Source of the DNA: Candidatus Enterousia sp.
GTDB lineage: Bacteria > Pseudomonadota > Alphaproteobacteria > Rs-D84
NCBI GenBank assembly: GCA_045613925.1
Contig: JAZLBV010000006.1
Span: forward strand, 19,224-83,223
DNA: 64,000 nucleotides
Direction of reading: 5' to 3'
The notes beneath the pieces are model-generated. The model saw only the letters and a program-made list of their open reading frames with translations, was not told the DNA's origin and made no database searches. The position numbers and the translations under genes are program-made. Below, in pieces: positions 7,816 to 26,954 of the stretch (position 1 is its first letter; every line of letters begins with the position of its first letter).

Positions 7816-7900
7816 GGCTCTGTGGCGGAACTGGTAGACGCGCTTGACTCAAAATCAAGTTCTGCAAGGAGTATCGGTTCGATTCCGATCAGAGCCACCA
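7816..7900 (+). tRNA. tRNA-Leu (anticodon CAA)
   Basis: GGCTCTG acceptor stem pairs with CAGAGCC. Anticodon loop is CUCAAAA. It has a long variable arm, a TTCGATT T-loop and an encoded CCA. Confidence 0.95.
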
Positions 7901-8035: not shown

Positions 8036-8599
8036 ATGAATTTTATCAAAACAGATATAGATGGTGTTGTTATTATTGAACCAAGAATATTTCCTGATTC
8101 GCGTGGATATTTTTTTGAAAGCTATAACGAACAAGAATTTATAAAAAACGGTATTCCGAATCGCTTTGTCCAAGATAACCAATCAAAATCATCATACGGT
8201 GTTGTGCGTGGTTTGCATTGCCAATTAGTTGCACAAGCCCAGGCTAAATTAGTTCGCGTATTGCAGGGCAAAGTTTTAGACGTCGCAGTTGATGTTCGCA
8301 AAGGTTCCCCAACCTTTGGAAAACACGTTGCCGTTGAATTATCCGACGAGAATATGCGACAATTGTTTATACCACGCGATTTTCTGCACGGATTTTCCGT
8401 TTTAAGCGACACCGCTGTTTTCGCCTATAAGGTAGACAATTTTTATAACAAAGAATCAGAATTTGGAATTCGTTATAATGACCCTGAAATCAATGTAAAT
8501 TGGCGTGTTCCTGTGAACAAAATAATAACGTCAGACAAAGACAGAATCGCAAATAGTTTGCAGGATTTGATAATAAAAAACTATCAATTTGAAAAATAG
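8036..8599 (+). CDS. rfbC: dTDP-4-dehydrorhamnose 3,5-epimerase
   Basis: DGVVIIEPRIFPDSRGYFFESYN ... VRGLHCQ ... GKVLDVAVDVRKGSPTFG is the RmlC cupin signature. Confidence 0.85.
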   Translation: MNFIKTDIDGVVIIEPRIFPDSRGYFFESYNEQEFIKNGIPNRFVQDNQSKSSYGVVRGLHCQLVAQAQAKLVRVLQGKVLDVAVDVRKGSPTFGKHVAVELSDENMRQLFIPRDFLHGFSVLSDTAVFAYKVDNFYNKESEFGIRYNDPEINVNWRVPVNKIITSDKDRIANSLQDLIIKNYQFEK

Positions 8600-8610
8600 G
8601 AAAAAAATAT

Positions 8611-8639
8611 TTGTAAAATCAATAAAAAACAGCTATAAC
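8611..8639 (+). promoter_or_regulatory. candidate sigma70 promoter for the TR-containing RNA
   Basis: TTGTAA (8611-8616), a 17-nt spacer, then TATAAC (8634-8639), immediately after the rfbC stop. Confidence 0.4.
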
Positions 8640-8645
8640 ACTTAT

Positions 8646-9100
8646 AAGGCAACAAAGTTTCCACGCCAAAACGTGGAAAAGGTCGCATTGTCGTACAGTT
8701 GTGTGTAGCGGTTTACGAGGCAGTTTTCTTGCGGTTTCGTTGTGGGTGTTCAACAACTCGAACAGCTCTACGTCCGAATGTGCGTCGAATTGCACGAACA
8801 ACTGTGGCAACAACGTCCAGAACAACTCGGACTTTCGCGCCGGCCTCTTCGGCTCTGTCGCTCCTTTGAAGGTGATAACTTTGACCAAAGGACAAAGTTT
8901 GGCTAACCTGCAGGACAAAGTGTAGATATAGACACTTTTCGGGTGTCAAGAAAACGACATCTGTTTTAAGGCCTTTCACATCAAAGGCGGGACGGTGTGA
9001 CCTGTCTTAACAAGACGAATACAAAACGCAGGGGATGTCTGGACTAGTAGTTTGCTCTGTATCACGACGAACGTCCTGGATATCCGATTAAACAAAGGAC
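8646..9100 (+). ncRNA. candidate DGR template RNA (TR plus structured spacer)
   Basis: About 450 nt that is markedly GC-richer than its surroundings, with no convincing CDS. Hairpins at 8658-8679 (tttccacg/cgtggaaa), about 8931-8947 (gacac/gtgtc) and ccttt/aaagg near 8970-8985. It lies directly upstream of ORF108 and the RT. Confidence 0.5.
8701..8870 (+). other. template-repeat (TR)-like segment; AAC-rich core at 8752-8826
   Basis: In the open frame starting at 8701, codons 18-42 hold 9 AAC and 1 AAT (FNNSNSSTSECASNCTNNCGNNVQNNSDFRAGL). The true boundaries cannot be set without a VR. Confidence 0.55.
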
Positions 9101-9104
9101 AAAT

Positions 9105-9431
9105 ATGACACTGGATGAAATTAAGCAATTAAACGAAAAAAATTATCCTAAATTTTCTTCGTTTGCAAAGAATCAGATGCCTATGCCCGGGAATAAAAAA
9201 CATCTGGATGATGTTTTAAACCGTGAAATCACGATTATCGATTACAGAATGCGACGTTCGACAAAACGTGATGGCACAGAGTGTCTGCAACTACAATTTA
9301 TACTGGATAACGAGGTTTGTGTTTTATTTACAGGCTCAAGTGTATTGACTAATCAAATCAAAGAAAGCAAAGATAATATCCCGTTTGTGACAACGATTGT
9401 TAAAATCGACAGATATTACTCTTTCTCTTAG
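9105..9431 (+). CDS. DGR-associated accessory protein, not Avd-like
   Basis: 108 aa with an AAAGGA RBS. The sequence looks beta-strand-rich (ITIIDYRM, CLQLQFILDNEVCVLFTG, FVTTIVKIDRYYSF). It sits between the TR-like RNA and the RT. Confidence 0.6.
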   Translation: MTLDEIKQLNEKNYPKFSSFAKNQMPMPGNKKHLDDVLNREITIIDYRMRRSTKRDGTECLQLQFILDNEVCVLFTGSSVLTNQIKESKDNIPFVTTIVKIDRYYSFS

Positions 9432-9451
9432 AACCAGTATAAAATTGTGTT

Positions 9452-10486
9452 ATGAAGACATATAAAAATCTTTGGGATAAATTTATCTCGAAAGAAAACT
9501 TTGATTTAGCAGCAAAGAAAGCGATAAAAAGTAAAAAATCTAAGAAATCAGTAAGGTTCTTTTTAAGAAATCGTGAAAAATTCTTAGAAAAATTACGAAA
9601 ATCTTTAATAAATGGCACTTTTAAAACATCGCCATATAAAACTTTTGTTATTTATGAGCCCAAAAGGCGAATAATTTACAAATTACCGCTTTATCCAGAC
9701 CACGTGTTGCATCACGCGCTTATCAATGTTCTGGGGCCGATTTGGCAAAGCTTCTTTATCAAAGACTCTTTTTCGTGCATTCCAGGGCGTGGTTTGTTGT
9801 ATGCTTCACGCCGTACGATGCGGTTTATCAAACGAAACAAATATGTTTTGCAATGTGATATTCGGAAATTTTATCCTTCCATAGATCATACTGTTATTAT
9901 GGATATAATCGCACATAAAATCCATGACAGACGCATGTTAAAAATATTAAATGAAGTCATCTGCTCTGTGGGTGGGCAAACTAATTTGCCGATTGGTAAT
10001 CTCACATCTCAGTGGTTGGGTAACGTTTATATGAATGAACTTGACCATTTTATAAAACAAGATTTACATTGGCGCGATTATATCAGATATTGTGATGATT
10101 TTTGTCTTTATGGGAATAACAAACAAGATTTGCACGATGCGGCTCAAAAAATAAAAACATTCGTCAGAGAACGACTAAAAATGGAATTTTCTAAATGCAA
10201 CCTGCGCAGGACATCAAACGGTGTTACCTTCATAGGATACAGGCATTTCAGAAAATTTATATTACTGCGTCATCTTACTGCGTGTAAATTACGCAGACGA
10301 ATCGTAAACATAATCGTGCACAGCGACTTCAGTGATCGTTCTGTTGCTCAATTGGCATCAGCATATGGATGGACCAAGTGGTGCAACAGTTATCATTTTC
10401 GAAAAACAATTCAGGTATTTGCGCGCAAAATTTCGCGGAAAGCTGGCGCTTTTATAAAAAGCAACCTTTTTTTTGACAAAAAATGA
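9452..10486 (+). CDS. DGR-type reverse transcriptase
   Basis: NLWDKFISKENFDLAAKKA, YEPKRRIIYKLPLYPDHVLHHAL, DIRKFYPSIDH, LPIGNLTSQWLGNVYMNELDHF, YIRYCDDF and FIGYR. It is colinear with Bordetella phage BPP-1 Brt as I recall it. Confidence 0.85.
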   Translation: MKTYKNLWDKFISKENFDLAAKKAIKSKKSKKSVRFFLRNREKFLEKLRKSLINGTFKTSPYKTFVIYEPKRRIIYKLPLYPDHVLHHALINVLGPIWQSFFIKDSFSCIPGRGLLYASRRTMRFIKRNKYVLQCDIRKFYPSIDHTVIMDIIAHKIHDRRMLKILNEVICSVGGQTNLPIGNLTSQWLGNVYMNELDHFIKQDLHWRDYIRYCDDFCLYGNNKQDLHDAAQKIKTFVRERLKMEFSKCNLRRTSNGVTFIGYRHFRKFILLRHLTACKLRRRIVNIIVHSDFSDRSVAQLASAYGWTKWCNSYHFRKTIQVFARKISRKAGAFIKSNLFFDKK

Positions 10487-10526
10487 AAAATTTTTTTAAA
10501 TGTTGTTTGGCTTTGAAAAAAAAATA

Positions 10527-10535
10527 TGATATAAT
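10527..10535 (+). promoter_or_regulatory. extended -10 promoter element (TGATATAAT)
   Basis: An exact TGnTATAAT about 20 nt upstream of the 10556 start codon. Confidence 0.45.
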
Positions 10536-10555
10536 GCATAGCAAGAGAAAGGGAA

Positions 10556-11329
10556 ATGCGTCATTTTAATAGGCAATTTTCATTGGTTGCGGCGGTTTTG
10601 TGTTTCGGCCTGGTATCTGGTGCGGATGCTGCGCCGTCTGTCCGTGTATTAGGATCATCTGCTGGCTCTTCGGTTGGAAAAACCACAGGGACTAAGGTTT
10701 CTGGGGCTAAGACTGGGAACACCATAAAATCATCTGTTTTGAACGCCAATACCGGTGTAAAGAAATCTGCGTCTGTAAAAACTATGTCGCCGACCACCAC
10801 AACTATGCAACCTGTGGCACGTACGTCGTCTGGTCGTGCTGGGACTGCTGGCACAGGAACCGTTGCGACTGTTGGTGGCGCGAATCGTTTCCCAGGAATT
10901 GCATCCAAAACCAACGTACAAAAATCTTATAGTCCGTCTGCAACAGGAACCATAATATCTACCGATCCAAATGCACGTAGCTATAATATGCAGGAAATGA
11001 GTGAACGTTTGGAAGTTTTGGAAGAAGACATCGTGTCTAAGGCGAAAAAAAACGATTTAGATAATTATTATACAAAAGACGAAATCAATGAAGGTTATTA
11101 CACTACGACCCAGGTTGATGAAAAAATAAACAGTATCAACACAGACATGTCGTCGCCGTATATGCAGGCATTGACTGAAAGTGTGCAAAGAAACACCGCA
11201 GATATTCTTACTCTTAAAGGTCAATATCAGTATATTTACGATATGGGCACTGGCGAAAAGAAATCTGTTTATCTGATAACTAATTTTGATGAAAGTTTGT
11301 TCTCTGACGAGACTGTTGTGGGGGATTAA
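10556..11329 (+). CDS. secreted fibre-like protein (Gly/Ser/Thr/Ala-rich N-terminal half, coiled-coil C-terminal half)
   Basis: Signal peptide MRHFNRQFSLVAAVLCFGLVSGADA. Low-complexity region. YYTKDEINEGYYTTTQVDEKI resembles tail-fibre motifs. Confidence 0.6.
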   Translation: MRHFNRQFSLVAAVLCFGLVSGADAAPSVRVLGSSAGSSVGKTTGTKVSGAKTGNTIKSSVLNANTGVKKSASVKTMSPTTTTMQPVARTSSGRAGTAGTGTVATVGGANRFPGIASKTNVQKSYSPSATGTIISTDPNARSYNMQEMSERLEVLEEDIVSKAKKNDLDNYYTKDEINEGYYTTTQVDEKINSINTDMSSPYMQALTESVQRNTADILTLKGQYQYIYDMGTGEKKSVYLITNFDESLFSDETVVGD

Positions 11330-11348
11330 GAAAACAAGGTAAAACGAA

Positions 11349-11771
11349 ATGAAAAAGATATTGTTTTCTTGTATGGCTTTATCAATTCTGACTGCGACTT
11401 CCGCGTTTGCAGATGGTGTTGCGTATGTCGTGACAAAACCTTATGTTGATGCAGGACTTCAGAGTGTGTATAACAAAATCAAATCCGCACAAAGCGATAT
11501 CGACGAATTAACTGTTTTTGTTGGTGCACCAACTGTTGGTGATATTCCTGGCACAGGGTTGGCGAAACGAATTGAACAATTAGAAGTTGGCTTGGTAAAT
11601 GCTAATAATCAATATTCTGGTGATGGTCGTGGTGTAATTGTCACGGACGATAATAAAATCGGAATTATTGGATTAAGTCAGTCTACGGGTGTTAACAATA
11701 AAATGTATGTTTTCCAAAATAATATCGCCACAGAACTTGAAGTAAAGGACACCTGGACCATAGATAACTAA
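11349..11771 (+). CDS. small secreted fibre-like protein
   Basis: Signal peptide MKKILFSCMALSILTATSAFA. VVTKPYVDAGLQSVYNKI is related to the YVKGAYN motif of the downstream paralogs. Confidence 0.6.
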   Translation: MKKILFSCMALSILTATSAFADGVAYVVTKPYVDAGLQSVYNKIKSAQSDIDELTVFVGAPTVGDIPGTGLAKRIEQLEVGLVNANNQYSGDGRGVIVTDDNKIGIIGLSQSTGVNNKMYVFQNNIATELEVKDTWTIDN

Positions 11772-11777
11772 GATTAA

Positions 11778-11801
11778 AATCCCACACATGGGATTTTTTT
11801 T
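11778..11801 (+). terminator. intrinsic terminator
   Basis: atccc-acacat-gggat hairpin followed by a T-run. Confidence 0.65.
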
Positions 11802-11808
11802 ATTTAAA

Positions 11809-11838
11809 ACCGATTCGTTTAACAGAATCGGTTTTTTT
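11809..11838 (+). terminator. second intrinsic terminator (accgattc family)
   Basis: accgattc-gtttaaca-gaatcggt hairpin followed by a T-run. A related hairpin recurs at 13072. Confidence 0.65.
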
Positions 11839-11973
11839 ATGCATCAATGCTATAAACTGGGCGATATAGGTTGCCAAGTTATGAAAGACCGAAAAATTCT
11901 GCATTTTTTCAAAAGTCAAGCAAAAAAATATTATAAATATAGTTTGACTGGACATAAAAAACAAAAAATTTTA

Positions 11974-11982
11974 TGATATAAT
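11974..11982 (+). promoter_or_regulatory. extended -10 promoter element (TGATATAAT)
   Basis: An exact TGnTATAAT about 30 nt upstream of the 12014 start. Confidence 0.45.
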
Positions 11983-12013
11983 AAATGCGTGAGAGAAAAA
12001 AACGAGGCTAAAT

Positions 12014-13051
12014 ATGAAAAGACTGTTAAGTGTTTCAATGTTTGCGATTGTTGCCGCGGCACCTGTTATGGCGCGCGCTGACAAAACAATAACATCGCTT
12101 GAATTGCAAAATGGTGGGAACGTTCCCGCTTCGACCCAGGTTGCAACAACATCATATGTTAAGGGTGCATACAACGCGGTTGCAAATGCGGTCAATGCTG
12201 TGGTCACAGATATGACTGTTGCAGACGGCGAATATACCCACATTAACCCAAACAAAAGCGTTGCTGAAAACTTGGTATTATTGAACAATGCAATTAACAG
12301 TGCGGGCACCACATCAAGCAGCACATATACAACCAAAGAATCTGCAGCTGCATCTTTAGCGACTGGCGCGGATACATTACATTACGTCAGTGCAGATGGC
12401 GAAAAGGTTGGCGCAAACCTTGGTGCATTGGACAAAGCTGTTTATGATAACGAAACTGCAATCGGGTTATTGAATTCTGGCGACACAGTCGAAGGTTCTG
12501 TTGCATATGCGGTTAAAGGCGAAGAAACCCGTGCAATGGCGGCAGAAACAGCGTTAAGCGATCGTATTGGAACATTGGATACGAATAAAAATTATTTACG
12601 GACTACAAACGACGTCTATACAAATATGACTGCGCTTGACACCCAGGTTCACAATAATGAATTAAGCATTGGTTCTTTAAGTTCGTTAAGCTCTGCTGGC
12701 AGTATGAACACAATTGAAAGTCGTGCAACATTGGTATCTGCAATCAATACATTGGATGCTGCGATTTCCAGCGCGGGAACTGCATCTAATGTGACGACCG
12801 GACACTATATCGGAACAGCAAACGGAAAAACATCTGTTTCTGCTAATTTAACGGCTTTGGATAACGAAGTCTATGATATTAACACCAACAAAATTGGTTC
12901 AGTTGATATGGGTACGACTGCAACAACCGTTACTGGCGCAATCAAGGAAATGCACGATCAACAGATTGAGGTTGCGACCACTTGGAACAGCAGTACTACT
13001 CAAAAGATTAATTTATTCCCAACTGCATCTGGCGATGACGATGGCGAATAA
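12014..13051 (+). CDS. secreted fibre-like surface protein paralog
   Basis: Signal peptide. VATTSYVKGAYNAVANAVNAV motif. The NLxALDxxV..N...IG motif occurs 4-5 times. Confidence 0.65.
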   Translation: MKRLLSVSMFAIVAAAPVMARADKTITSLELQNGGNVPASTQVATTSYVKGAYNAVANAVNAVVTDMTVADGEYTHINPNKSVAENLVLLNNAINSAGTTSSSTYTTKESAAASLATGADTLHYVSADGEKVGANLGALDKAVYDNETAIGLLNSGDTVEGSVAYAVKGEETRAMAAETALSDRIGTLDTNKNYLRTTNDVYTNMTALDTQVHNNELSIGSLSSLSSAGSMNTIESRATLVSAINTLDAAISSAGTASNVTTGHYIGTANGKTSVSANLTALDNEVYDINTNKIGSVDMGTTATTVTGAIKEMHDQQIEVATTWNSSTTQKINLFPTASGDDDGE

Positions 13052-13071
13052 TCTTTTGTAAAAGAAATAAA

Positions 13072-13103
13072 AAACCGATTCGTTCAACCGAGTCGGTTTT
13101 TTT
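13072..13103. terminator. intrinsic terminator hairpin
   Basis: aaccgattcg-ttcaac-cgagtcggtt flanked by an A-run and a T-run. Confidence 0.65.
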
Positions 13104-13343
13104 ATACATGAAAAAAAATTAAGCACCAATCTCTGTTTTTGATTCGCGGAACACAGCATATTCTGCCCCTTGGGGAAGTGGCACGTAGTGCCGAAGGGTG
13201 TTCACCGAATTGCGAATACACCGGAACACCCCACTCCGGCTGCGCCCACCCCCAACCATAAAAAACATACGAAAAAAAATAAAAAGTCAAGAGAAAATTT
13301 TCATAAAAAAATGTTTGACAAGCGTAAAAACACCCTTTTTTTG

Positions 13344-13352
13344 TGATATAAT
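13344..13352 (+). promoter_or_regulatory. extended -10 promoter element (TGATATAAT)
   Basis: Lies within cacccttttttTGTGATATAAT, about 55 nt upstream of the 13407 start. Confidence 0.45.
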
Positions 13353-13406
13353 ATGGTTATAAAATTGCTTAGCTTAGGGACGGCTATTTAAATGAGAGAG
13401 AAAACA

Positions 13407-14036
13407 ATGAAAAAATTATTAGGTATTTCTATCGTCGCTATGTTAGCCGTCACACCTATGATGGCAAACGCAGCGCAGACGGCTGCTAATTTAGCGGCAA
13501 CATCTGGTACCGAACAAAATGCTATTGCAACAACATCGTATGTTAAGGGTGCCTATAACGCAGTAAAAGCAGCGCACGATGCCGTTGTTTCCGATATTAC
13601 TGTTGGCAGTGGCACACATTATCATATTACAGCTGGCAACAGTGTTGCTGAAAATTTGGGAGAATTAGATACAGCAGTTCACCAAAATGATGAGAAAATT
13701 GGTACTATAACAACTTTACAGAGCAGCACCACATTTGGTCAGGACGAAGACCACAGCGACGTCGTTAATGCAATCATCAGTACAAAAACACAAGCTAACG
13801 CGACAGATGCTTTGGTTGGCAGTTCTGCATCATCATTGACAACCGAATTTGGTTCAGGTGTTGACACTGTTGATAAGGCTTTGAAAAAATTGAAAGAAGG
13901 GCTTGGTGCAACAGATAGCAAAGGCGTTGTTGTTTATAATGGTTGGAATGGCGGTGGCACACCAAATGGTAATGGTTGGGTCGGTTTGACAGCAGAACCT
14001 CAACAAACTGGTAGTGGTGAACAAACTGGTAACTAA
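13407..14036 (+). CDS. secreted fibre-like surface protein paralog
   Basis: The start at MKKLLGISIVAMLAVTPMMANA was chosen by identity with the 14434 paralog. IATTSYVKGAYNAVKAAHDAV motif. Gly/Asn/Trp-rich C-terminus. Confidence 0.65.
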   Translation: MKKLLGISIVAMLAVTPMMANAAQTAANLAATSGTEQNAIATTSYVKGAYNAVKAAHDAVVSDITVGSGTHYHITAGNSVAENLGELDTAVHQNDEKIGTITTLQSSTTFGQDEDHSDVVNAIISTKTQANATDALVGSSASSLTTEFGSGVDTVDKALKKLKEGLGATDSKGVVVYNGWNGGGTPNGNGWVGLTAEPQQTGSGEQTGN

Positions 14037-14057
14037 TCATTTAGATACAAATTTAAA

Positions 14058-14081
14058 ACGACCCATTTGGGTCGTTTTTTT
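14058..14081 (+). terminator. intrinsic terminator
   Basis: acgaccca-tt-tgggtcgt hairpin followed by a T-run. Confidence 0.7.
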
Positions 14082-14370
14082 GTTGTACCTGGCTTTGAAT
14101 CCTGTCCAAAAGAAAAAGCATCGGTATTTGTTTCTATTTTGCGATGCACCGCAACACAAAAACCAAACCAAAGTGCTTTATAATTAGAAACGAAATGCGT
14201 TTTATTGTCGCAGGGCTGGAAATAAAAAACAAAAATTTCTTTTCGTCGCGCACGCGGGTTCAACCAAGAAAAATCCCATAAAAAAACCGTCAGAAAATAA
14301 AAAAAATATAAAAGTCAAGAGAAAAATTTCATAAAACAACATTTGGCATTGGACTAAATCATAAAAATTA

Positions 14371-14379
14371 TGTTATAAT
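14371..14379 (+). promoter_or_regulatory. extended -10 promoter element (TGTTATAAT)
   Basis: A TGnTATAAT about 55 nt upstream of the 14434 start. Confidence 0.45.
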
Positions 14380-14433
14380 GTCAGAGTAAAAAATACTTGG
14401 CTTAGGGACGGCTATAAAAATGAGAGAAAAACA

Positions 14434-15543
14434 ATGAAGAAATTATTAGGTGTTTCTATCGTCGCGATGCTAGCCGTCACGCCTATGATGGCACACGCCG
14501 TGGGAAGTGCCCCAACGGCGGCGACCACATCGTCCGAACCATATTTGGGGGTTGATGTTGCGACGACTGACCAGGGTCATATTGCATCTACTGCGTATGT
14601 CAAGGGTGCGTATAACGCCGCGATTGGCGCAGTTAACGCGGTTTCAGCTGCAAAACAAAATAATTTGATGAACAACGCAGCAAGCCCTGTTGCCGTATCT
14701 AGCACTGTTAAGACAAGTGTTGGCGCTGCGACTGGTGAAAACGCTGCAGACAATACATCATTGGTAACTGAAAAGGCCGTCCGTGATGCGATTGATGCAA
14801 TTGAGGGCGCCGATGCAATCACAGCAGGTCCAGGTGTTAGCAAAACAAACAACAAGATTTCTGTAGATTTAACATCAAACGGCGGTTTGCAGACAACTGG
14901 TGAGGGTGATGCCGCTACATTGGGTGTAAAGGTTAACACTGGCACTATGGAAGTTGGCGCAGACGGTGTCGGAATCAAAGCCGGCGGTGTGGGCACAACG
15001 CAATTGGCAGATAACGCAGTGACAACTGCTAAGATTCTTGACGCAAATGTTACAGCTAATAAATTAGCAACAGATTCTGTAACGACCGCGAAAATCGCCG
15101 ATGGTAATGTTACAACTGCTAAGTTGGATGCAAGTGCCGTAACAACTGCGAAAATCGCTGACGCAAATGTAACGACTGGTAAGTTGGCGGATAGTGCTGT
15201 AGAAACAGCAAAAATCGCTAATGGGGCTGTGACATATAGCAAGTTGGATTCAGACTTGGTTCAAACTTCAGTTCGTTCATCGGTGGATAGTAATGCCGAA
15301 GGTTATAGTGCTTGGAATTCTGATCAAACTGTCGCATCTGAAAAAGCGGTCGCGACTGCGATTTCTACGGCTACAACAGGTATGGCGACACAAACTGGTG
15401 TGAATTCTGCTATTGCAGCGTCCAGCGTTTCTGTAACATCTGCAACTGTGGATGTCTATAACGCTTGGGGTGCAGAAACTACAACCCCTGTTAATGCCAA
15501 TGTGACCGTAGACTTTACAGCGGGTACATATCCAAATAATTAA
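14434..15543 (+). CDS. secreted fibre-like surface protein paralog with 11-residue tandem repeats
   Basis: Signal peptide MKKLLGVSIVAMLAVTPMMAHA. IASTAYVKGAYNAAIGAVNAV motif. About 8 copies of an xxVTTAKIADxN-type repeat. Confidence 0.7.
   Translation: MKKLLGVSIVAMLAVTPMMAHAVGSAPTAATTSSEPYLGVDVATTDQGHIASTAYVKGAYNAAIGAVNAVSAAKQNNLMNNAASPVAVSSTVKTSVGAATGENAADNTSLVTEKAVRDAIDAIEGADAITAGPGVSKTNNKISVDLTSNGGLQTTGEGDAATLGVKVNTGTMEVGADGVGIKAGGVGTTQLADNAVTTAKILDANVTANKLATDSVTTAKIADGNVTTAKLDASAVTTAKIADANVTTGKLADSAVETAKIANGAVTYSKLDSDLVQTSVRSSVDSNAEGYSAWNSDQTVASEKAVATAISTATTGMATQTGVNSAIAASSVSVTSATVDVYNAWGAETTTPVNANVTVDFTAGTYPNN
14983..15252 (+). repeat. in-frame 33-bp tandem repeats (about 8 units) encoding (A/N)VTTAK(I/L)ADxN
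   Basis: GVGTTQLADNAVTTAKILDANVTANKLATDSVTTAKIADGNVTTAKLDASAVTTAKIADANVTTGKLADSAVETAKIANGAVTYSKLD. Confidence 0.8.
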
Positions 15544-15553
15544 CATAAAATTT

Positions 15554-15598
15554 GGTCTGGACAATTATGTTGTATTCGTATAACATAATTGTCAGACC
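15554..15598. repeat. long imperfect inverted repeat (about 17-bp arms)
   Basis: ggtctggacaattatgtt ... aacataattgtcagacc between two paralogs. No T-run follows it. Confidence 0.6.
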
Positions 15599-15651
15599 GG
15601 GTGGGAAAGGAAAAAATTCAATCTTTATCAAAAAAAATTAATAAAAATTAC

Positions 15652-16224
15652 ATGAAAAAACTTTTATTCATTTTTCTTGGTTCGATCTTAGTTACACCTG
15701 CGTTCGCATTGGGCGAAGAGCAGGAAACGCCGGCAATTACTCAGTTTATAAGCCCGACGACTGCAAGCGTCCAGGATTCTGCATCTGTGTCTGCAAACGC
15801 GCCTAAGTATGATTTGAATACTATTACTACAACCGACCAGGAACATATTGCGTCGGCTGCGTATGTTAAGGGCGCACACAACAGCGCACTTTCCGCTATC
15901 AATTATTTACAGGGTTCTAAACAGGCGCAATTGGTTAATGATGCCGCGTCGCCTGCTAATGTTTCCAATACAGTGAAAACAACGTTGGGAACAACATCCA
16001 CCGCCAGTGATACTGCGTTGGCATCCGAGTTAGCGGTGGCGACTGCGTTGTCTGAGAAACAGGCCACATTGTCAAGCACCAATGTTACAACATCTGGTAC
16101 GGGCGCTGTTGTTACAGGCGTCAGTGCATCCGGTGGTAATGTTACGGTTACAACGGGTCAGGTCACGATTCCGGTGGGCAGTGTTTCGTCGCCTACATCC
16201 CAGGCACAAATTTGGGTACAATAG
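15652..16224 (+). CDS. secreted fibre-like surface protein paralog
   Basis: Likely start MKKLLFIFLGSILVTPAFA. IASAAYVKGAHNSALSAINYL motif. Ser/Thr/Val-rich C-terminus. Confidence 0.6.
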   Translation: MKKLLFIFLGSILVTPAFALGEEQETPAITQFISPTTASVQDSASVSANAPKYDLNTITTTDQEHIASAAYVKGAHNSALSAINYLQGSKQAQLVNDAASPANVSNTVKTTLGTTSTASDTALASELAVATALSEKQATLSSTNVTTSGTGAVVTGVSASGGNVTVTTGQVTIPVGSVSSPTSQAQIWVQ

Positions 16225-16246
16225 AATTATTCTTGAATAAAAAAAA

Positions 16247-16272
16247 GAATCGGATACAAATCCGATTTTTTT
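16247..16272 (+). terminator. intrinsic terminator
   Basis: aatcgga-tacaaa-tccgatt hairpin followed by a T-run. Confidence 0.7.
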
Positions 16273-16385
16273 ATGGTTTGGTTTCAAAAAGTTAAAAAAT
16301 CAATGATAAATTCCACAGAATCATCCATACCTGTTGTATATTTTATCTTGATTTTTTACGATGTTTATGCGCTATAATATTGACA

Positions 16386-17306
16386 ATGAAAATAGAAAAT
16401 TTTGATTTTTTGAAAGTATCTCCGTATGTATCAGATAAAAAAGAGTATTTTGAAGTAAATACTCTTGTGAAATTTGTTGATGCCAGTTATGGCAATTGGA
16501 AAATTACTGATAAGTTTAACGATAAAGGATACAATGGTAATATATATAGGGTGGTAAACAAACGGGGAGTTAAAGGATTGCTAAAACTGCCCCGTATAAG
16601 ATCAATAGATAATGAAAAGACTAGTAAGCAAAACCTGATTACAGAAATAAAAAATTTACTATTACTAACTGGCCACCCTAATATTCAATTGATACTTGAC
16701 AGCGATATAGCTGAAAATAATCCGTTTCTTGTTTACGAAGAAATTGTTGGTTCTACGCTAGACAAAATTGTAAAAAACAAACCAATTGAACCCCAAAAAG
16801 CTATTCTGGCAACAATTAACTTATTGGATACACTGCAATTTTGTCACAGTCAAAACATAGTGCACAGAGATATTAAACCAGATAATATTATTTGCAGAAA
16901 CGATGATATCAACGATATGGTCTTGATAGATTTTGGTTTATCAACAACGGCGAATTCTTCATCTGAAAAAGACTGGAATCGTATATGTTGCAACAGGAGT
17001 ATTGCTCTACCTGAATTATTTTTAGGTACGAACTAGTCAGATCCGCGCTCTGATATTTCATATGTATGCTGCGGGGTGTTATTTTATATGTTATATGGCT
17101 TTTTGCCAAGAATAATGACCGATGGTATGGGTATGTTGCCCACGACAGTAGAACAGGCACGCACAATACATAACAACTGGTCCCCCAGAATACAAGAACC
17201 CATTATGAATTTTTTTAGAAAAGCCTATTATCCAAATATCGACCAACGTTATCAGAATATTAAAGAAGCGCAAAGCGAATTGAAAAACATATTAAAACTG
17301 TTTTGA
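16386..17306 (+). pseudogene. Ser/Thr protein kinase interrupted by a single in-frame TAG (17034-17036)
   Basis: HRDIKPDNII catalytic loop and IDFGLS (DFG motif). ORFs 16380..17036 and 17076..17306 share one reading frame. Subdomain IX (SDISYVCCGVLFYMLYGFLP) continues after the stop. Confidence 0.7.
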
Positions 17307-17314
17307 TAAAATTC

Positions 17315-18142
17315 TTATAATTGCACTACCCTAACAACAAACACATTGCTGCTGGGAATCAAATTGCATTGCCGAATATCAATAGTAAATCTATCTGAAA
17401 TTGGTCCACTGGGCAATTCAACAAAATATCCCGCACAATAATCATATTGACCAGGTATCTGCGTAAACAGATTCAATTTTATAATATCAAAAATCTTTGC
17501 TTCGTCATTACGGTTAGACGCTTTTTTTGCTTCTATTACAATTTTATTATTTTTTCTGCCACGCATATGCGCTATTATGTCTGGGAAAACTCGTTTTACA
17601 TATTTTTTTGAATTATTCTTTGACGTAGAAAATTCTAAAAAACTTCCTGCAAAATCCGTTCCCACATCACTTTCGTCGGCAATCCTGACTGGATTATCCA
17701 AATCTTTTGCTAACTCAGAAAATATACCTCTAAGTTCAGATATTTCATTCCACCCAAATGCATACCGTAAGATTTCGAAAATGTTGTTATTCTTTGTTGT
17801 TTCTTTATTTTTATCAACAAAATTTTTAATCTCTTGTACAATATAGTCAAAATCCAGAGTCTTTGTGGTGTTAAGCTTTTTATTATACTCACAATCAACA
17901 TTATAATCAGGTAATAAATGTTGTAAATATTCCGCTATTTTATGTGTCTGTGCCCGCTCATTTAAATCTTTTTCAAATAGGTAAGTATCATCTTTTATAA
18001 AACGATTCAAAGCAGATATTATTAATTTATGATATTGTACCTTACCTGAAAAACAACCACAATGACAACATCTATATTCACAGACAAAATCTAAACAATT
18101 ATGACAGTGTAACATTTTTACTCTTTCGATTTTATCACACAA
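17315..18142 (-). CDS. Cys-rich (Zn-ribbon-like) N-terminus plus PD-(D/E)xK nuclease-fold protein
   Basis: CHNCLDFVCEYRCCHCGC at the N-terminus. FPDIIAHMRGRKNNKIVIEAKK is a canonical PD...ExK arrangement. Confidence 0.5.
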   Translation of the reverse strand: MCDKIERVKMLHCHNCLDFVCEYRCCHCGCFSGKVQYHKLIISALNRFIKDDTYLFEKDLNERAQTHKIAEYLQHLLPDYNVDCEYNKKLNTTKTLDFDYIVQEIKNFVDKNKETTKNNNIFEILRYAFGWNEISELRGIFSELAKDLDNPVRIADESDVGTDFAGSFLEFSTSKNNSKKYVKRVFPDIIAHMRGRKNNKIVIEAKKASNRNDEAKIFDIIKLNLFTQIPGQYDYCAGYFVELPSGPISDRFTIDIRQCNLIPSSNVFVVRVVQL

Positions 18143-18534: not shown

Positions 18535-18624
18535 TGGCGGATGGGGAGGGATTCGAACCCCCGGAAGCCTTACGACTTCAGCGGTTTTCAAGACCGTCGC
18601 ATTCGACCGCTCTGCCACCCATCC
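18535..18624 (-). tRNA. tRNA-Ser (anticodon UGA)
   Basis: Reverse complement GGATGGGTGGCAGAGCGGTCGAATGCGACGGTCTTGAAAACCGCTGAAGTCGTAAGGCTTCCGGGGGTTCGAATCCCTCCCCATCCGCCA, with a long variable arm. Confidence 0.95.
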
Positions 18625-22912: not shown

Positions 22913-23926
22913 ATGAAAAAAACTTTGAAACATTTGATTGCCGCGACAGCATCTGTTGTGTCTACGGGCGCGTTTGCTGCATCAAATATTGAAAGTCCGC
23001 TTTATATGCCACAAAATCGCGAAGTTTATTTAAGAACTGGTGCCGCGATGATGTATAAAACGGTTGAAAAGACTGATGCTACCATAGCGAAAGATACAGA
23101 TGGGAACTGGGAATTTCCTGTATGGCGTTTTACTGGTGATATTGGATATGGTATTACGGACAGATTAGATGTTCACGGCCATTTCGGATACACCAAAGAC
23201 GGTAAAATTGACCGCAAGGGTATGCACCGTGGACGTGTTGGTTTAATGTATCGTGTTTTAACTGACGAAGATCCTTTTGTTTTGGATTTTTATGCCGACG
23301 GTTATTTATCTGGCATCACACCTATGAAGGGAACTTACACTGCCAGAGGTTTTAATTTTGACAATTATTCCAATGGTCGTTGGGGCGCAATTGCTGGAAC
23401 ACGTTTTGGTAAAACATTGGGTGATTTCACGTTGGGTGCACACGTTGAATATTTACAAACATTTGGAAATCATAATAACAAGATTGCGATTGATCGTAAT
23501 GTTCCTGTTACTGGTACTCCATACAATATGGGGCAAATTGGGTTTCCAGATGAAATTTCTGTGGATTTAAAATCTACACACGAAACAACTGCTGGATTTG
23601 ATGTAATGTATCAAATGAACACAAAGTGGTCTTTTGGTGCTGGATTTGAATATATTGAACACGCAAATAATGGTGTAAAGGGTGTTCATACACAAATGCC
23701 TAATGCGGCATCAGAACAAGTTGCTGCAGGCTTGGTAGAACTGACCAAAGATATGAAAGATGGTTGGGATGAATATGTTATAAAAACCAGTGCTGCATAT
23801 CAAATGACAGAAGATATTCAATTTGCAATATTTGGTGAATATACGATGGATGATTCTAATTCTAAATCGCAGAATGCCACTAATTGTAAAATTGAATTCG
23901 GTGCTCGTTTGAATGCACGTTTCTAA
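22913..23926 (+). CDS. outer-membrane beta-barrel protein
   Basis: Signal peptide ending AFA-AS. It shows an alternating beta-strand pattern, and its C-terminal residue is Phe (NARF). Confidence 0.65.
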   Translation: MKKTLKHLIAATASVVSTGAFAASNIESPLYMPQNREVYLRTGAAMMYKTVEKTDATIAKDTDGNWEFPVWRFTGDIGYGITDRLDVHGHFGYTKDGKIDRKGMHRGRVGLMYRVLTDEDPFVLDFYADGYLSGITPMKGTYTARGFNFDNYSNGRWGAIAGTRFGKTLGDFTLGAHVEYLQTFGNHNNKIAIDRNVPVTGTPYNMGQIGFPDEISVDLKSTHETTAGFDVMYQMNTKWSFGAGFEYIEHANNGVKGVHTQMPNAASEQVAAGLVELTKDMKDGWDEYVIKTSAAYQMTEDIQFAIFGEYTMDDSNSKSQNATNCKIEFGARLNARF

Positions 23927-23958
23927 AATTAAATAAAAAATAACTTTATATTGGACAA

Positions 23959-23985
23959 TTTGCACCCGAAAGGGTGCAATTTTTA
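23959..23985 (+). terminator. intrinsic terminator
   Basis: ttgcaccc-gaaa-gggtgcaa hairpin followed by a T-run. Confidence 0.75.
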
Positions 23986-24033
23986 TTTTATAATATAAAA
24001 ATGTTTTTAGGGCTTTTTTTGAACCCCAATTTA

Positions 24034-24042
24034 TGATATAAT
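24034..24042 (+). promoter_or_regulatory. extended -10 promoter element (TGATATAAT)
   Basis: An exact TGnTATAAT about 25 nt upstream of the 24068 start. Confidence 0.45.
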
Positions 24043-24067
24043 ATTCACAAAGGGATTTAGGAGAAAA

Positions 24068-25210
24068 ATGAAAAAAGCCTGCTTTTTTGCGACTTTCATT
24101 GGCATTATGTCGTCATTGCCGTTTGGGGTAGATGCCGCATATCCTGTATATAATCCACAGCAATTAGCACGCCAGGGGTATGTTATAAACACACAACAAT
24201 ATCCAACACAAAACGTGCAAACACAGTATCAACAGCGCACAAACATTATGCCCCAACAATTGGCGGCTGCATCTGCGGTTAATGGGCGTCCTATGGTGGC
24301 GGCTTCTAATCCAAATCGTGTAACAGGTTCGTTGCCACGCGTGGGGTCATCTGCAACAAATGCAGGACGTCAATATTACCAATCTGCTGATTATAACAGA
24401 TTGGCAGATAGTGGTTTATATGTTGGCTTGTCCGCCGGATATAATGTTATGACTAAGGGTTCAATGTCTGCTGATTATGCAAACGAAGAAAAGGCATTTT
24501 TGGCACCGGGTTCATTTGAACCGTCTGATTTTCAAAAAGATAGCGTAATTCCATTACAGGTATCTGTGGGTGCCGCGATAAATAGCGATGTTCGTGTTGA
24601 TTTTTCATTTTTGCGCTATTCTGGGCTTTCATACGCTAGCAACGTTCAAACATCCACAGGTGATGGCCTTACTGATGCGACGGTCAGTGGTGGTGCGATA
24701 ACATCAAATTCCACTATGTTAAACGTTTATTATAATGTGGATTCTTTCACTGGAAATATGGCGGGCGGTTCGTTGCGTCCATATGTTGGTGCTGGTGTTG
24801 GGTTGGCATTGAATACAATTGCTGATTATGTTGTATTTGATAATCATTTCTATGATGAAACAGATGGTTTGGGGCCAGGTTCCATTGCAGCAGGTTATTT
24901 GACCGCGGTTTCTGATATTTACGGTTATCATAATGGCGGAACTATGGAACAAATCGCATTTAATTTAGAAGCTGGTGTAACGACTGCTATGAACGATGGT
25001 TTAAAGCTTGATTTCTTCGTGCGTTATGCAAATTTGGGTAAAGTAAGAACTTCTGGTTCTATTGTTGTATCCCAGACCGAATGGTTAAGTGATGGTGCCG
25101 GCGATGAATATGAAGCCCCATACGATAGTGTATTTCATTATACTAATTGGTTTGAAAGCGGCAGATTAAATATGATGGATGTCGGTGTCAGATTAAGATT
25201 AGAATTTTAA
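24068..25210 (+). CDS. outer-membrane beta-barrel protein (Omp25/porin-family-like) with Gln/Pro-rich N-terminal extension
   Basis: Signal peptide. Beta-barrel repeats such as PYVGAGVGLA. The C-terminus is VRLRLEF. Confidence 0.65.
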   Translation: MKKACFFATFIGIMSSLPFGVDAAYPVYNPQQLARQGYVINTQQYPTQNVQTQYQQRTNIMPQQLAAASAVNGRPMVAASNPNRVTGSLPRVGSSATNAGRQYYQSADYNRLADSGLYVGLSAGYNVMTKGSMSADYANEEKAFLAPGSFEPSDFQKDSVIPLQVSVGAAINSDVRVDFSFLRYSGLSYASNVQTSTGDGLTDATVSGGAITSNSTMLNVYYNVDSFTGNMAGGSLRPYVGAGVGLALNTIADYVVFDNHFYDETDGLGPGSIAAGYLTAVSDIYGYHNGGTMEQIAFNLEAGVTTAMNDGLKLDFFVRYANLGKVRTSGSIVVSQTEWLSDGAGDEYEAPYDSVFHYTNWFESGRLNMMDVGVRLRLEF

Positions 25211-25244
25211 TCGTGGCGTGATATTTATCTGAAATATTACAAAA

Positions 25245-26954
25245 ATGATAAATAAAATATGTAAAATATCTTTGTTTTCTGCGATTTTGGCATCTGTTAT
25301 GAATATGCCGGCTGATGCGCGTGTAACGGTCAAAAAAGCGGGAAGCTATGCCAACGCATACAACCAGGTTATGAATGTTCGTCAACAGGCAGAATATATG
25401 TCTGCTAATCAAATTACTGCAACAACGAACAGTGCAACATCAATATTGCCTGTGGCGGTTGATGATGCAGATTTAGCGCAAGAGATTTTTAACAATACCG
25501 CAACAAATGTGAATACTGACGATTTGGAAATGTGTTCTATGATTTATCCAACTGGCATTTTTAGATGGGGTGTGCCAGAGGCGGGTATTCGCAGAAATCC
25601 ATCTCAGCAATGCATCGCTGTGGTTGAGCTGCGTGATGCAAATACAAATGCTGTGTTAGCCCAGACAACATTGGCATCTGGGGATGCAATGAAATGCAAT
25701 ATTGATATGTTCCCTGAATCTGGGTGGATGAACGTATTGGGCAATGTGATATTGCCTGCTGATGCTGCGCCTACTTTGGCCCAAGTTGAACAGGTTATGA
25801 ATATCGAACAGAAACAGAATGCCGGATTAAAGATTGCCGCTGCTGCGATAATAAGCGGTGTTGCAGGCAATATGTTGGCACCAAAAGAAGCGGGCGACAC
25901 AAAATTATTAGGCACTGGTAAAACACAGTTAATTGATACCGCAATTGGTGCAACCGCAGGTGCAGGCATTATGGCAGCCAGTACTTATACAGGCAAAGTT
26001 GCTGGCGATACTATCAAATCTACGGCTGTGAATGCTGCTGCTGGTATGGTTGTGGGAAATATGGCTGCGGGTATGTCGGGTGGAAATGGTATTTTATATA
26101 CTGCAAAATGTTCAGTTGACGGTATTGAACAAGATTGTGTCATCGGCAAGGTCAGAATTACAGACAAAACAGAAAAGTACGAATACACAAAAAGCAATGA
26201 CATTTATTTGATAAACAGAAAAAAAGAAATTCTTAAATGTAAACGTGATGTATGTATGGATATGGAAGCAGAAGATTGTTTAAAATCTTGCTATTCCCAG
26301 AGATACAATGAATTGATAAATATGAAGGTATCTTTGTTAAATAACAGAGGTATCAAAATGGTGTCGCAGCTGGAAAGTAATGATTGGCAGAATATCGCCC
26401 TTAAATACAGAAAAACAGATAAAAAATTTGAACAAACGTCTAATTTCGGTGATGAAACTGATGTGGATGTTTATTATGTAGTCCAAGAAGGTATCCCATC
26501 TGGTAAAACTGGCGACAGGCCTGCGTATGCCGTATTTGGTTCATTGCCAAAAAAATTGAGTGGTTATAAAGTTTCTGAATGGGATTATCTGTATGCTCAG
26601 GGGCCGCAAATCTATTACCGCAACACAGACGGCAGTGTTGGTGATATTGTAAGGATAGAAGATGGACAAACATCATATTTTACTCCATCTGAACGTGATG
26701 CAAGCGACGGCGCATTAGTTGACTTATCAAACGAAGCACGTGCCAAAGCAACAATTACTGGTGCGGTTGCAGGTGGTGCATTGGGTGGTTTTTCTGGATA
26801 CCAAGGCGCGAAACAGGAGGTGTCTGAACGTTGGACTGCGGCTGTGCGAGAATATGAAGATTCTTTGTCTATTTTCTATTGTGCAACTGGAACACGCTTT
26901 TTATCCAAATATAATGATTATTTTGAAATTCCAGAGGCACGAAAGGCAGAATAA
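25245..26954 (+). CDS. secreted/membrane protein with glycine-zipper-like segments
   Basis: Signal-like N-terminus. Gly/Ala-rich stretches (AIGATAGAGIMAAS, AAAGMVVGNMAAGMSGG, GAVAGGALGGFSG). Confidence 0.45.
   Translation: MINKICKISLFSAILASVMNMPADARVTVKKAGSYANAYNQVMNVRQQAEYMSANQITATTNSATSILPVAVDDADLAQEIFNNTATNVNTDDLEMCSMIYPTGIFRWGVPEAGIRRNPSQQCIAVVELRDANTNAVLAQTTLASGDAMKCNIDMFPESGWMNVLGNVILPADAAPTLAQVEQVMNIEQKQNAGLKIAAAAIISGVAGNMLAPKEAGDTKLLGTGKTQLIDTAIGATAGAGIMAASTYTGKVAGDTIKSTAVNAAAGMVVGNMAAGMSGGNGILYTAKCSVDGIEQDCVIGKVRITDKTEKYEYTKSNDIYLINRKKEILKCKRDVCMDMEAEDCLKSCYSQRYNELINMKVSLLNNRGIKMVSQLESNDWQNIALKYRKTDKKFEQTSNFGDETDVDVYYVVQEGIPSGKTGDRPAYAVFGSLPKKLSGYKVSEWDYLYAQGPQIYYRNTDGSVGDIVRIEDGQTSYFTPSERDASDGALVDLSNEARAKATITGAVAGGALGGFSGYQGAKQEVSERWTAAVREYEDSLSIFYCATGTRFLSKYNDYFEIPEARKAE

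Follow-up and report, generated by a model that had tools for sequence, protein, structure and literature searches.

A lineage-specific cluster of exported, modular fibre-like proteins beside a diversity-generating retroelement in Candidatus Enterousia

What does a row of genes for secreted, fibre-like proteins do directly beside the reverse transcriptase (RT) of a diversity-generating retroelement (DGR)? The question is raised by a stretch of 64,000 nucleotides from Candidatus Enterousia sp. (contig JAZLBV010000006.1, positions 19,224 to 83,223; hereafter the window), in which six such genes lie immediately downstream of the RT. The initial annotation suggested that this array is a surface receptor-binding repertoire, which could be diversified by paralog exchange or could be the remnant of a DGR-bearing phage tail module. 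The six genes very probably represent a lineage-specific, non-phage family of fibre-like proteins that is not a target of the DGR. On balance, the overall picture is of a lineage-specific cluster of exported modular fibre proteins that probably function as envelope fibres for contact with a partner.

The RT stop codon is at 10486 and the array begins after a gap of 69 nt. The ORF listing bears out the description of six consecutive genes on the same strand, all of them plus-strand open reading frames (ORFs), as follows (aa, amino acids).

10556..11329, plus strand: gene 1, 257 aa; leader, then a low-complexity region rich in Ser, Thr and Lys, a C-terminal part that is helical, and VYLITNF as a hairpin-like C-terminal motif
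11349..11771, plus strand: gene 2, 140 aa; leader, the TKPYVDAGLQ variant of the N-proximal block, and the C-terminal hairpin motif ELEVKDTW
12014..13051, plus strand: gene 3, 345 aa; after the leader and ATTSYVKGAYN come eight predicted helices with four NLxxLDxxV repeats and, at the C-terminus, a beta-hairpin (IEVATTW...KINLF)
13407..14036, plus strand: gene 4, 209 aa; a long paralog with a gene-3-like N-terminal part, one NLGELDTAV repeat, VVVYNGW, and a Gly/Asn-rich tail
14434..15543, plus strand: gene 5, 369 aa; N-proximal block, Gly-rich repeats, about nine decapeptide repeats of the form (x)VTTAKIAD(x)N, and a C-terminal VDVYNAW
15652..16224, plus strand: gene 6, 190 aa; a short paralog that closes the array; distinct leader type, PKYDL...YVKGAHN, and ...VTVTTGQVTIPVG...IWVQ as its conserved C-terminal block

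Gene 2 starts 19 nt past gene 1. The start codons chosen in the initial annotation for genes 4 and 6 are correct, as the homologs begin at MKK, and an upstream in-frame ATG of gene 4 falls out of frame in the otherwise near-identical leader region of gene 5.

All six products carry a Sec signal peptide, as had been claimed. The leaders were judged by inspection and hydropathy, and each has two basic residues, a 12-residue hydrophobic core with a Kyte-Doolittle mean of 2.3-2.8, and a small-x-small site. The putative cleavage sites of genes 1-6 are, in order, ADA, AFA, ARA, ANA, AHA and AFA. By inspection, every one of the six has the basic n-region, the h-region and the small-x-small site of a signal peptidase I substrate, and none has a lipobox Cys. 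The mature parts are essentially Cys-free, with the sole Cys of gene 1 and that of gene 2 lying within the leader region, and A, T, S, G, N and V make up 49-69% of their residues.

Genes 3-6 share the N-proximal block YVKGA(Y/H)N, and gene 2 has the PYVDAG version of it (TKPYVDAGLQ), in agreement with the initial annotation. The fuller form in genes 3-6 is A(S/T)xxYVKGA(Y/H)N, and the DNA encoding the block is 70-92% identical among these four genes. In BLAST, the paralogs resemble each other only within their first 50-130 residues: identity is 40% between genes 5 and 6 (first ~130 residues), and the first ~92 residues of gene 4 are 42-53% identical to the gene-3 proteins of the window and its relatives. 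The C-terminal parts had been described as unrelated, which is not wholly the case, since a [VI]x[VL]xxxW beta-hairpin motif closes genes 2-5 (ELEVKDTW, IEVATTW, VVVYNGW and VDVYNAW, respectively). Gene 6 has the form IWVQ, and gene 1 has VYLITNF, in which the motif ends in Phe. Across all loci, 58 of 81 family ORFs contain the Trp motif, versus 57 of 564 other ORFs. In an alignment of 23 gene-3 sequences the invariant residues are Y48, V49, G51, A52, Y53, N54, N61, A309 and W324, and the middle of the protein tolerates insertions; in the gene-6 alignment they are Y71, V72, G74, A75, P174 and W188. The YVKGAYN fibre family, as defined here by sequence, consists of proteins with a leader, A(S/T)xxYV(K/Q)GA(Y/H)N, and the C-terminal [VI]x[VL]xxxW hairpin. 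Genes 3-6 fit this definition in full, gene 2 has the YVDAGLQ variant, and gene 1 has only the Phe form of the C-terminal motif.

Between these two conserved ends lie the regions that suggest a fibre. Three motifs had been cited as typical of trimeric fibres and phage tail fibres, and only one of them stands on database evidence: the VTTAKIADxN repeats have PHROG and phage tail-fibre matches, but NLxxLDxxV fits no model and YYTKDEIN matches nothing. Gene 5 matches the PHROG tail-fibre families 28766, 892 and 21412 with E 9e-19 to 2e-12. In tblastn, its residues ~150-312 match tail fibres of T7-like cyanophages (podovirus), Gordonia phages and Lactobacillus phages (E down to 1e-18, 34-68% identity). 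It also matches PDB chain 9eg4_H (orf16; E 9e-4) via the repeats only; 9EG4 is the accession that its paper lists for the capsid of Legionella phage LME-1. Phage tail-fibre homology is confined to this gene 5 repeat module, and genes 1, 2, 3, 4 and 6 have nothing significant in PHROG (best E 0.02-0.04). The long paralogs of some relatives have near-threshold matches to the adenovirus fibre shaft.

NLxxLDxxV occurs four times in gene 3, compared to 0.07 times in shuffles, and once in gene 4. If the extended motif NLxxLDxxVxxNxxxIG is read as heptads, L, V, N and I would occupy alternating core positions, and this is how we infer an Asn-in-core pattern. Such a pattern is typical of trimeric coiled coils, as in the stalks of trimeric autotransporters. 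A search of the PDB with the gene-3 profile gave coiled-coil noise only (E > 0.2). The AlphaFold2 (AF2) monomer model of gene 3, built on 23 sequences, has a mean predicted local distance difference test (pLDDT) score of 60 and shows eight helices with short loops and a terminal beta-hairpin (317-321 and 329-333). That of gene 6 (30 sequences; pLDDT 56) has a helix starting from the N-proximal block, two more helices, and four terminal strands. Over the post-leader region, AF2 predicts disorder and then helix. That the proteins form trimeric rods is somewhat more likely than not.

The family is restricted to one lineage. A search of 5.8 billion clusters gave 26 homologs of gene 3, none of them annotated and all from gut, rumen or faecal metagenomes; gene 6 has 32 among the same 5.8 billion, also unnamed, and gene 2 has only 41 representatives among 1.84 billion proteins, again unnamed. 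A motif scan of one genome per species (185,579 species) identified 21 loci, all in Alphaproteobacteria or 'proteobacterium' metagenome-assembled genomes (MAGs) from animal gut or rumen, and several of them are titled Candidatus Enterousia. No family in Pfam or NCBIfam matches any of the six genes. Being invisible to Pfam, NCBIfam and, save for one module, PHROGs, the family has been carried only as hypothetical proteins. Enterousia is placed in the order Rs-D84, and its genomes are mostly < 1 Mb (PMC12306168).

The window is chromosomal, with rpoB/C-sized ORFs, ribosomal protein L28, rfbC, lgt and six tRNAs, and the position of the array on the chromosome is conserved. In six relatives (loci L001-L006) the order is a ClpB-like gene, DUF4301, L28, rfbC, and then genes for proteins of ~265, ~140 and ~340 aa, with no RT. 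One of these, L005, has a fourth gene that is 68% identical to gene 4; L009 also has a gene 4 ortholog (59%). In L009, L011 and L012 a cassette consisting of the template repeat (TR), an accessory ORF and the RT lies between rfbC and gene 1, as in the window, and L012 (Ca. Enterousia sp.) reproduces the entire layout, RT included. Across loci the recurring order is a gene-1-like gene, a gene-2-like gene, one to four long YVKGAYN paralogs, and a short gene-6-like gene. Gene 1 is the conserved opener of the cluster, with orthologs leading L001-L014 and weaker matches in L019, L021, L022 and L028; it has no match in Pfam, PHROG, NCBIfam or GenBank phages. Gene 2 holds a conserved second position, with orthologs in 22 of 32 loci (L001-L032). 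Short gene-6-like genes close the arrays in most related loci, and their C-terminal 55 residues are 41-69% identical to gene 6; in L006 a pair like genes 5 and 6 lies elsewhere, upstream of ClpB. Judging from these orthologs, genes 1, 2, 3 and 6 are conserved components of the cluster found lineage-wide and not free-floating members of a repertoire.

The array evolves faster than its surroundings. Compared to L012, which has the same gene order, the six fibre proteins are 33-57% identical, whereas L28, rfbC, DUF4301, the RT and the accessory ORF are 68-92% identical (singly, L28 92%, rfbC 83%, RT 82%). The ratio of nonsynonymous to synonymous substitution rates (dN/dS), calculated against L009 and L011, is 0.16-0.18 for gene 1, 0.10-0.14 for gene 3, 0.07 for gene 2, and 0.04-0.10 for rfbC and the RT. 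From these values and the identities, the fibre genes are under purifying selection yet faster-evolving. Genes 4 and 5 are 84-92% identical in promoter, untranslated region and leader, and their divergence begins just past the leader-cleavage site. These shared 5' ends, along with the similar terminators of genes 2 and 3 (see below), point to cassette duplication and exchange. The 5'-cassette identity of genes 4 and 5 fits the paralog exchange that the initial annotation proposed.

The cluster has its own promoters and terminators. An exact extended -10 element had been noted upstream of four genes, and TGNTATAAT is indeed present at 10527 (gene 1), 11974 (gene 3), 13344 (gene 4) and 14371 (gene 5); there are only 8 copies on the plus strand of the whole window. 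Hairpin terminators had been claimed for most genes, and terminator-like hairpins do follow genes 2, 3, 4 and 6.

10507..10535, plus strand: promoter of genes 1-2 (TTGGCT, 17 nt, TGATATAAT)
11949..11982, plus strand: promoter of gene 3 (TGGACA ... TGATATAAT)
13315..13352, plus strand: promoter of gene 4 (TTGACA ... TGATATAAT)
14350..14379, plus strand: promoter of gene 5 (TGGACT ... TGTTATAAT)
11776..11837, plus strand: two terminator hairpins after gene 2, at 11776-11797 and 11806-11837
13069..13100, plus strand: terminator after gene 3, 88% identical to one of those after gene 2
14055..14078, plus strand: terminator after gene 4, a hairpin
15554..15598, plus strand: long imperfect hairpin between genes 5 and 6, with 17-18-nt arms, one unpaired base and no T tract
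16248..16267, plus strand: terminator after gene 6, a hairpin

These positions therefore define four transcription units, namely genes 1-2, gene 3, gene 4, and gene 5 with or without gene 6. The hairpin at 15554-15598 may act in processing or attenuation instead of termination. An Rfam search of 8550-16400 with E up to 1 gave only chance-level matches to terminator hairpins.

Two GC-rich spacers lie within the array, at 13125-13275 between genes 3 and 4 and at 14081-14300 between genes 4 and 5, in a genome that is otherwise 37% GC. Neither has an Rfam match or a second copy in the window or related loci. The spacer at 13125-13275, the only one that was folded, folds no better than shuffles (z = -1.7). 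L012 and L020 have similar GC-rich spacers at equivalent positions.

The DGR is a separate element upstream of the array, and its parts are as follows.

8727..8866, plus strand: TR, AAC-rich; aligns to variable repeats (VRs) on contigs L033 and L035; adjacent to the array but no component of the fibre cluster
9105..9431, plus strand: accessory ORF of the DGR, 108 aa, between the TR and the RT
9452..10486, plus strand: DGR RT, 344 aa; RVT_1 (E 3.9e-15) and phrog_1423 (E 3e-94); contains IGNLTSQ, which we take to be the DGR-type finger motif

The region 8600-9110 is 95-97% identical in L009, L011 and L034, although the flanking genes have synonymous sites close to saturation (dS 0.7-1.3). The accessory ORF is 84-95% identical in L009, L011 and L012 with dN/dS of 0.06-0.08; it has no match in Pfam or NCBIfam, where similarity to Avd is not detectable. 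An adenine-blind pattern made from the TR found three metagenome contigs, one with a further TR (L034) and two with VRs (L033 and L035). The mismatches fall at TR adenines in 14 of 21 cases in L033 and 14 of 16 in L035. The L035 VR closes a 216-aa gene. The encoded protein carries a leader, scores 28.3 bits for the Listeria-Bacteroides repeat Flg_new (cut-off 27), and finishes in a Cys-rich stretch, ...SLWVFYDSYGSPSVCASNCANYCGISVQYYSDFRAGLFGSVAN. The cassette thus has the marks of a DGR, an RT of the DGR clade and TR/VR pairs with adenine-specific mismatches, with both VRs on other contigs. On this TR/VR evidence the DGR is apparently functional and acts in trans, and the six genes are not among its targets. 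It is separate from the array and acts on a small secreted Cys-rich protein encoded outside the window.

That no VR lies in the six genes had been stated at the outset, and the same is true of the rest of the window, as judged by blastn (word size 7), an adenine-blind scan, and tblastn with the real target protein; on the plus strand the negative rests on blastn and tblastn, as the adenine-blind output was swamped by self-matches. The TR segment 8690-8930 has no second match in the window, and the tblastn search of the window with the L035-type target protein returned the TR only. L002, which has no RT between rfbC and gene 1, has a TR/VR pair, all 10 of whose mismatches fall at TR adenines, some 8-9 kb upstream of gene 1, beyond ClpB (140-340 and 650-850, minus strand; the target is 165 aa); the RT of this pair lies beyond the fetched locus. 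The window locus is a clean example of a TR-RT cassette that is unlinked from its targets in a very small genome.

A sister clade provides a connection between the fibre family and DGR-type variation. The locus L020, from a sheep-ileum MAG, encodes at 10745-11794 a 349-aa protein with the family leader, PKYALK...YVKGAYN, and the W hairpin VPVMDNW. This protein continues for ~190 residues past the hairpin and ends in a Cys-rich VR-type domain that is 48% identical to the L035 target (113 residues, E 3e-21). There are ~20 full-length homologs of the fusion (proteins P0059-P0081; in L036 at 10001-11029), and their alignment shows an invariant scaffold of CWCK, W and three Cys with hypervariable positions between. 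No RT or TR was found within 10 kb of the fusion genes in L020 or L036. The VR domain of the fusion is presumably ligand-binding. Its place at the C-terminus of a family member argues that the C-end is distal and binding, that the N-proximal block is proximal, and that the family works in recognition. The initial reading of the array as a surface receptor-binding repertoire is thus partly sustained: an exported paralog family with a conserved N-terminal element, variable rods and tips, and a VR-capped YVKGAYN relative all fit, but the DGR targets none of the six genes.

These observations suggest how the cluster may work. The proteins would be exported by Sec, with the leader cleaved. Each would have four parts, namely the cleavable leader, a short conserved N-proximal cap (PKYxL...A(S/T)xxYVKGAYN) where the first long helix starts, a rod that varies between proteins, and a short C-terminal beta-hairpin with the invariant Trp. 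The rod is predicted to be made of segmented helices with NLxxLDxxVxxNxxxIG repeats, to which gene 5 adds Gly-rich and phage-type decapeptide repeats. The rods would oligomerise, probably as trimers, with the C-terminal hairpin as nucleus. The N-proximal block may attach the rods to an envelope component or to the products of genes 1 and 2, so that the N-end would be proximal and the C-end distal, and different paralogs would display different distal ends. The four strong extended -10 promoters would drive the set. The number and kind of long paralogs, here genes 3-5, vary among species, probably through duplication and 5'-cassette exchange. The fibres would serve contact with a partner or host. 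That the proteins are surface adhesins is a tentative part of this scheme.

Several known systems resemble the array in part. The closest functional analogue is the MAT (mosaic adhesive trimer) fibre family of Bdellovibrio bacteriovorus, likewise a set of many paralogs with Sec leaders in a cell-contacting bacterium; in it the region after the leader is conserved, the fibre body has phage-like modules, and the C-terminal tips vary (PMC10769870). Characterised MAT members reach ~1,000+ residues and have beta-prism fibres and a beta-rich N-domain of ~130 aa, and the S74 chaperone-protease is present in 13 of 21 (PMC10769870). The array proteins differ in being 140-369 aa long and predicted mostly helical, with an N-motif of only ~25 residues, no S74 and no common Pfam domain. 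The comparison with MAT was made by description and membership is not claimed, as the S74 domain and the ~130-aa beta-rich N-domain that defines the family are both absent.

Tail fibres of T7-like cyanopodovirus, Gordonia and Lactobacillus phages resemble the repeat region of gene 5 (PHROG 28766, 892 and 21412), but this is one module of one gene, and the array proteins have secretion leaders, no virion-attachment domain and a non-phage chromosomal context. The layout predicted for gene 3, loop-broken helical segments ending in a Trp beta-hairpin, recalls T4 fibritin-type fibres with their foldon. The resemblance is an analogy, and no sequence or fold match was found. The YadA-family trimeric autotransporter adhesins share the Sec leader and NLxxLDxxVxxN with a putative core Asn, the stalks of this family being built with Asn-at-d layers. 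The array proteins lack the beta-barrel anchor that these adhesins have at the C-terminus, as well as head or neck motifs; they have no Pfam match, and their C-termini are hairpins of 15-30 residues or short tails. DGRs with remote targets and DGR-diversified pilus tip adhesins of Bacteroides are already known (bioRxiv 10.1101/2024.11.15.621889; PMC5758913). The present system is similar in that the VRs lie elsewhere than the cassette and that the sister-clade VR domain tips a YVKGAYN fibre. It differs in that the six genes have no VR and the TR-linked target is a 216-aa Flg_new-type secreted protein. The array therefore represents a new, unannotated protein family in a cluster architecture of a known general kind, that of bacterial fibre adhesins, and it does not appear to involve a new mechanism.

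Candidatus Enterousia and Rs-D84 are widespread and uncultured in gut and rumen. Their genomes lack a TCA (tricarboxylic acid) cycle, respiration and standard transporters, and a partner-dependent lifestyle has so far been proposed only from this missing metabolism (PMC12306168). A strongly promoted, fast-evolving cluster of exported fibres, together with a sister subfamily tipped by a DGR-type domain, provides candidate molecules for partner contact, which could be used as handles for antibodies, pull-downs and partner identification.

A number of observations weigh against envelope fibres for partner contact. Neither an outer-membrane anchor nor a lipobox was seen, nor any gene for a secretion system or for assembly next to the cluster, and the proteins could stay in the periplasm after Sec export. 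The AF2 monomer models are of low confidence at pLDDT 60 and 56, so that the fibre fold and trimer state stay putative. Foldseek searches of these models against PDB and BFVD gave nothing with E < 0.1, although this is expected because the models are monomers of what would be intertwined fibres. Genes 1-3 are single-copy, are kept in very small genomes and have dN/dS < 0.2, which would fit structural housekeeping too. Finally, the RT cassette occupies the identical site between rfbC and gene 1 in four species that span 48-87% gene-3 identity, so the adjacency of DGR and array may be non-accidental.

Housekeeping is accordingly the alternative that survives best, though it seems unlikely. The six would then be periplasmic or envelope-structural proteins and not surface adhesins, such as coiled coils that space or tether membranes and wall. 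The syntenic single-copy orthologs of genes 1, 2 and 3 by L28 and rfbC in genomes < 1 Mb (PMC12306168), purifying selection on all genes, plain Sec leaders, and the absence of any visible outer-membrane translocation device are in keeping with such a role. It would not account for the differences in copy number and content of the long paralogs between close species, for divergence much faster than that of neighbour genes, for the phage tail-fibre module in gene 5, or for the DGR-variable tip in the sister subfamily. DGR-variable tips are found mostly on surface-displayed ligand-binding proteins.

A bolder version of the envelope-fibre picture, to be held at a similarly low level of belief, is that the cluster encodes a new Sec-dependent surface organelle for attachment to a partner or host, the functional counterpart of phage tails or MAT fibres, whose distal tips would be renewed through the turnover of paralogs, to which some clades would add DGR mutagenesis of a tip fused to the fibre. 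If so, the placement of the DGR at the head of the cluster would reflect co-regulation or shared use, for example a small DGR-varied protein docking onto the fibres.

Somewhat more doubtful still is that the six proteins are subunits of one polymeric appendage, with genes 1, 2 and 6 encoding base, adaptor and cap and the long paralogs being alternative major subunits joined via the N-proximal block. The order of gene 1, gene 2, a variable number of long paralogs, and a short gene-6-like gene is fixed across many loci, the long paralogs have separate strong promoters, and a conserved N-terminal element with a variable remainder is also seen in pilins and flagellins. However, no usher, secretin, ATPase, sortase or prepilin peptidase is present in the window cluster or in the called neighbours of the relatives, and the predicted long helices with a terminal hairpin resemble rod-type fibres and not polymerising subunits.

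The phage remnant proposed in the initial annotation is largely refuted and can be given very little credence. An array that was the decayed tail-fibre module of a DGR-carrying prophage would explain the adjoining DGR RT, the tail-fibre repeats in gene 5, and the tRNA genes on both sides of the wider region. Yet genes 1-3 are syntenic downstream of ClpB-DUF4301-L28-rfbC in L001-L006, which lack the RT; synteny in RT-less relatives had itself been named as half of what would tell against the original reading. The chromosomal context is the same across the lineage with or without the RT, the flanks are housekeeping genes with no other phage gene among them, and all six proteins have secretion leaders. 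When 2.9 million IMG/VR contigs were scanned with the gene-3 family alignment, 189 stretches matched the motif and none of them codes for a relative; genes 1-3 had no tblastn match in 50,697 GenBank phage records. A prophage or island bounded by tRNA-Leu and tRNA-Ser was also considered and rejected, as rfbC and genes 1-3 lie inside that interval in all relatives.

That the six genes are targets of the adjacent DGR with VRs too diverged to recognise, as adjacency and the sister-clade fibre-VR fusions might suggest, is refuted for the window, where blastn, the adenine-blind scan and tblastn match nothing to the TR but the TR itself, where the six proteins have essentially Cys-free mature parts and no Cys-rich VR domain, and whose TR has its real VRs in a different protein.

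Some other features of the window lie close to the array. Directly 3' of it, at 16380-17306, is a eukaryote-type Ser/Thr protein kinase (Pkinase, E 3e-23) in two ORFs, 16380-17036 and 17076-17306; the split could be a frameshift or a pseudogene. In the relatives examined, other genes occupy this position. Between the kinase and tRNA-Ser is a 275-aa ORF on the minus strand (17315-18142) that matches no family and has Cys residues clustered at its N-terminus (CHNC...CEYRCCHCGC). A 22-nt inverted repeat (91% complementary; 8038-8059 and 17293-17314) spans from the rfbC start to the kinase end and may be due to chance; tRNA-Leu (7816-7900) and tRNA-Ser (18535-18624) lie just outside it.

The region 22913-26954 encodes three leader-bearing proteins of 337, 380 and 569 aa that belong to no Pfam family, and its local GC of 0.41 is raised as in the array. 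As in outer-membrane barrels, the last residue of two of the three is Phe, and a separate TGNTATAAT element at 24034 belongs to the 380-aa gene. Because these Phe-ending leader proteins (22913-25210) are barrel-like, the cell is probably diderm. At 29-1537, a 502-aa protein has weak matches to the YkuD L,D-transpeptidase domain, at threshold, and to the Tlde1 domain, below threshold.

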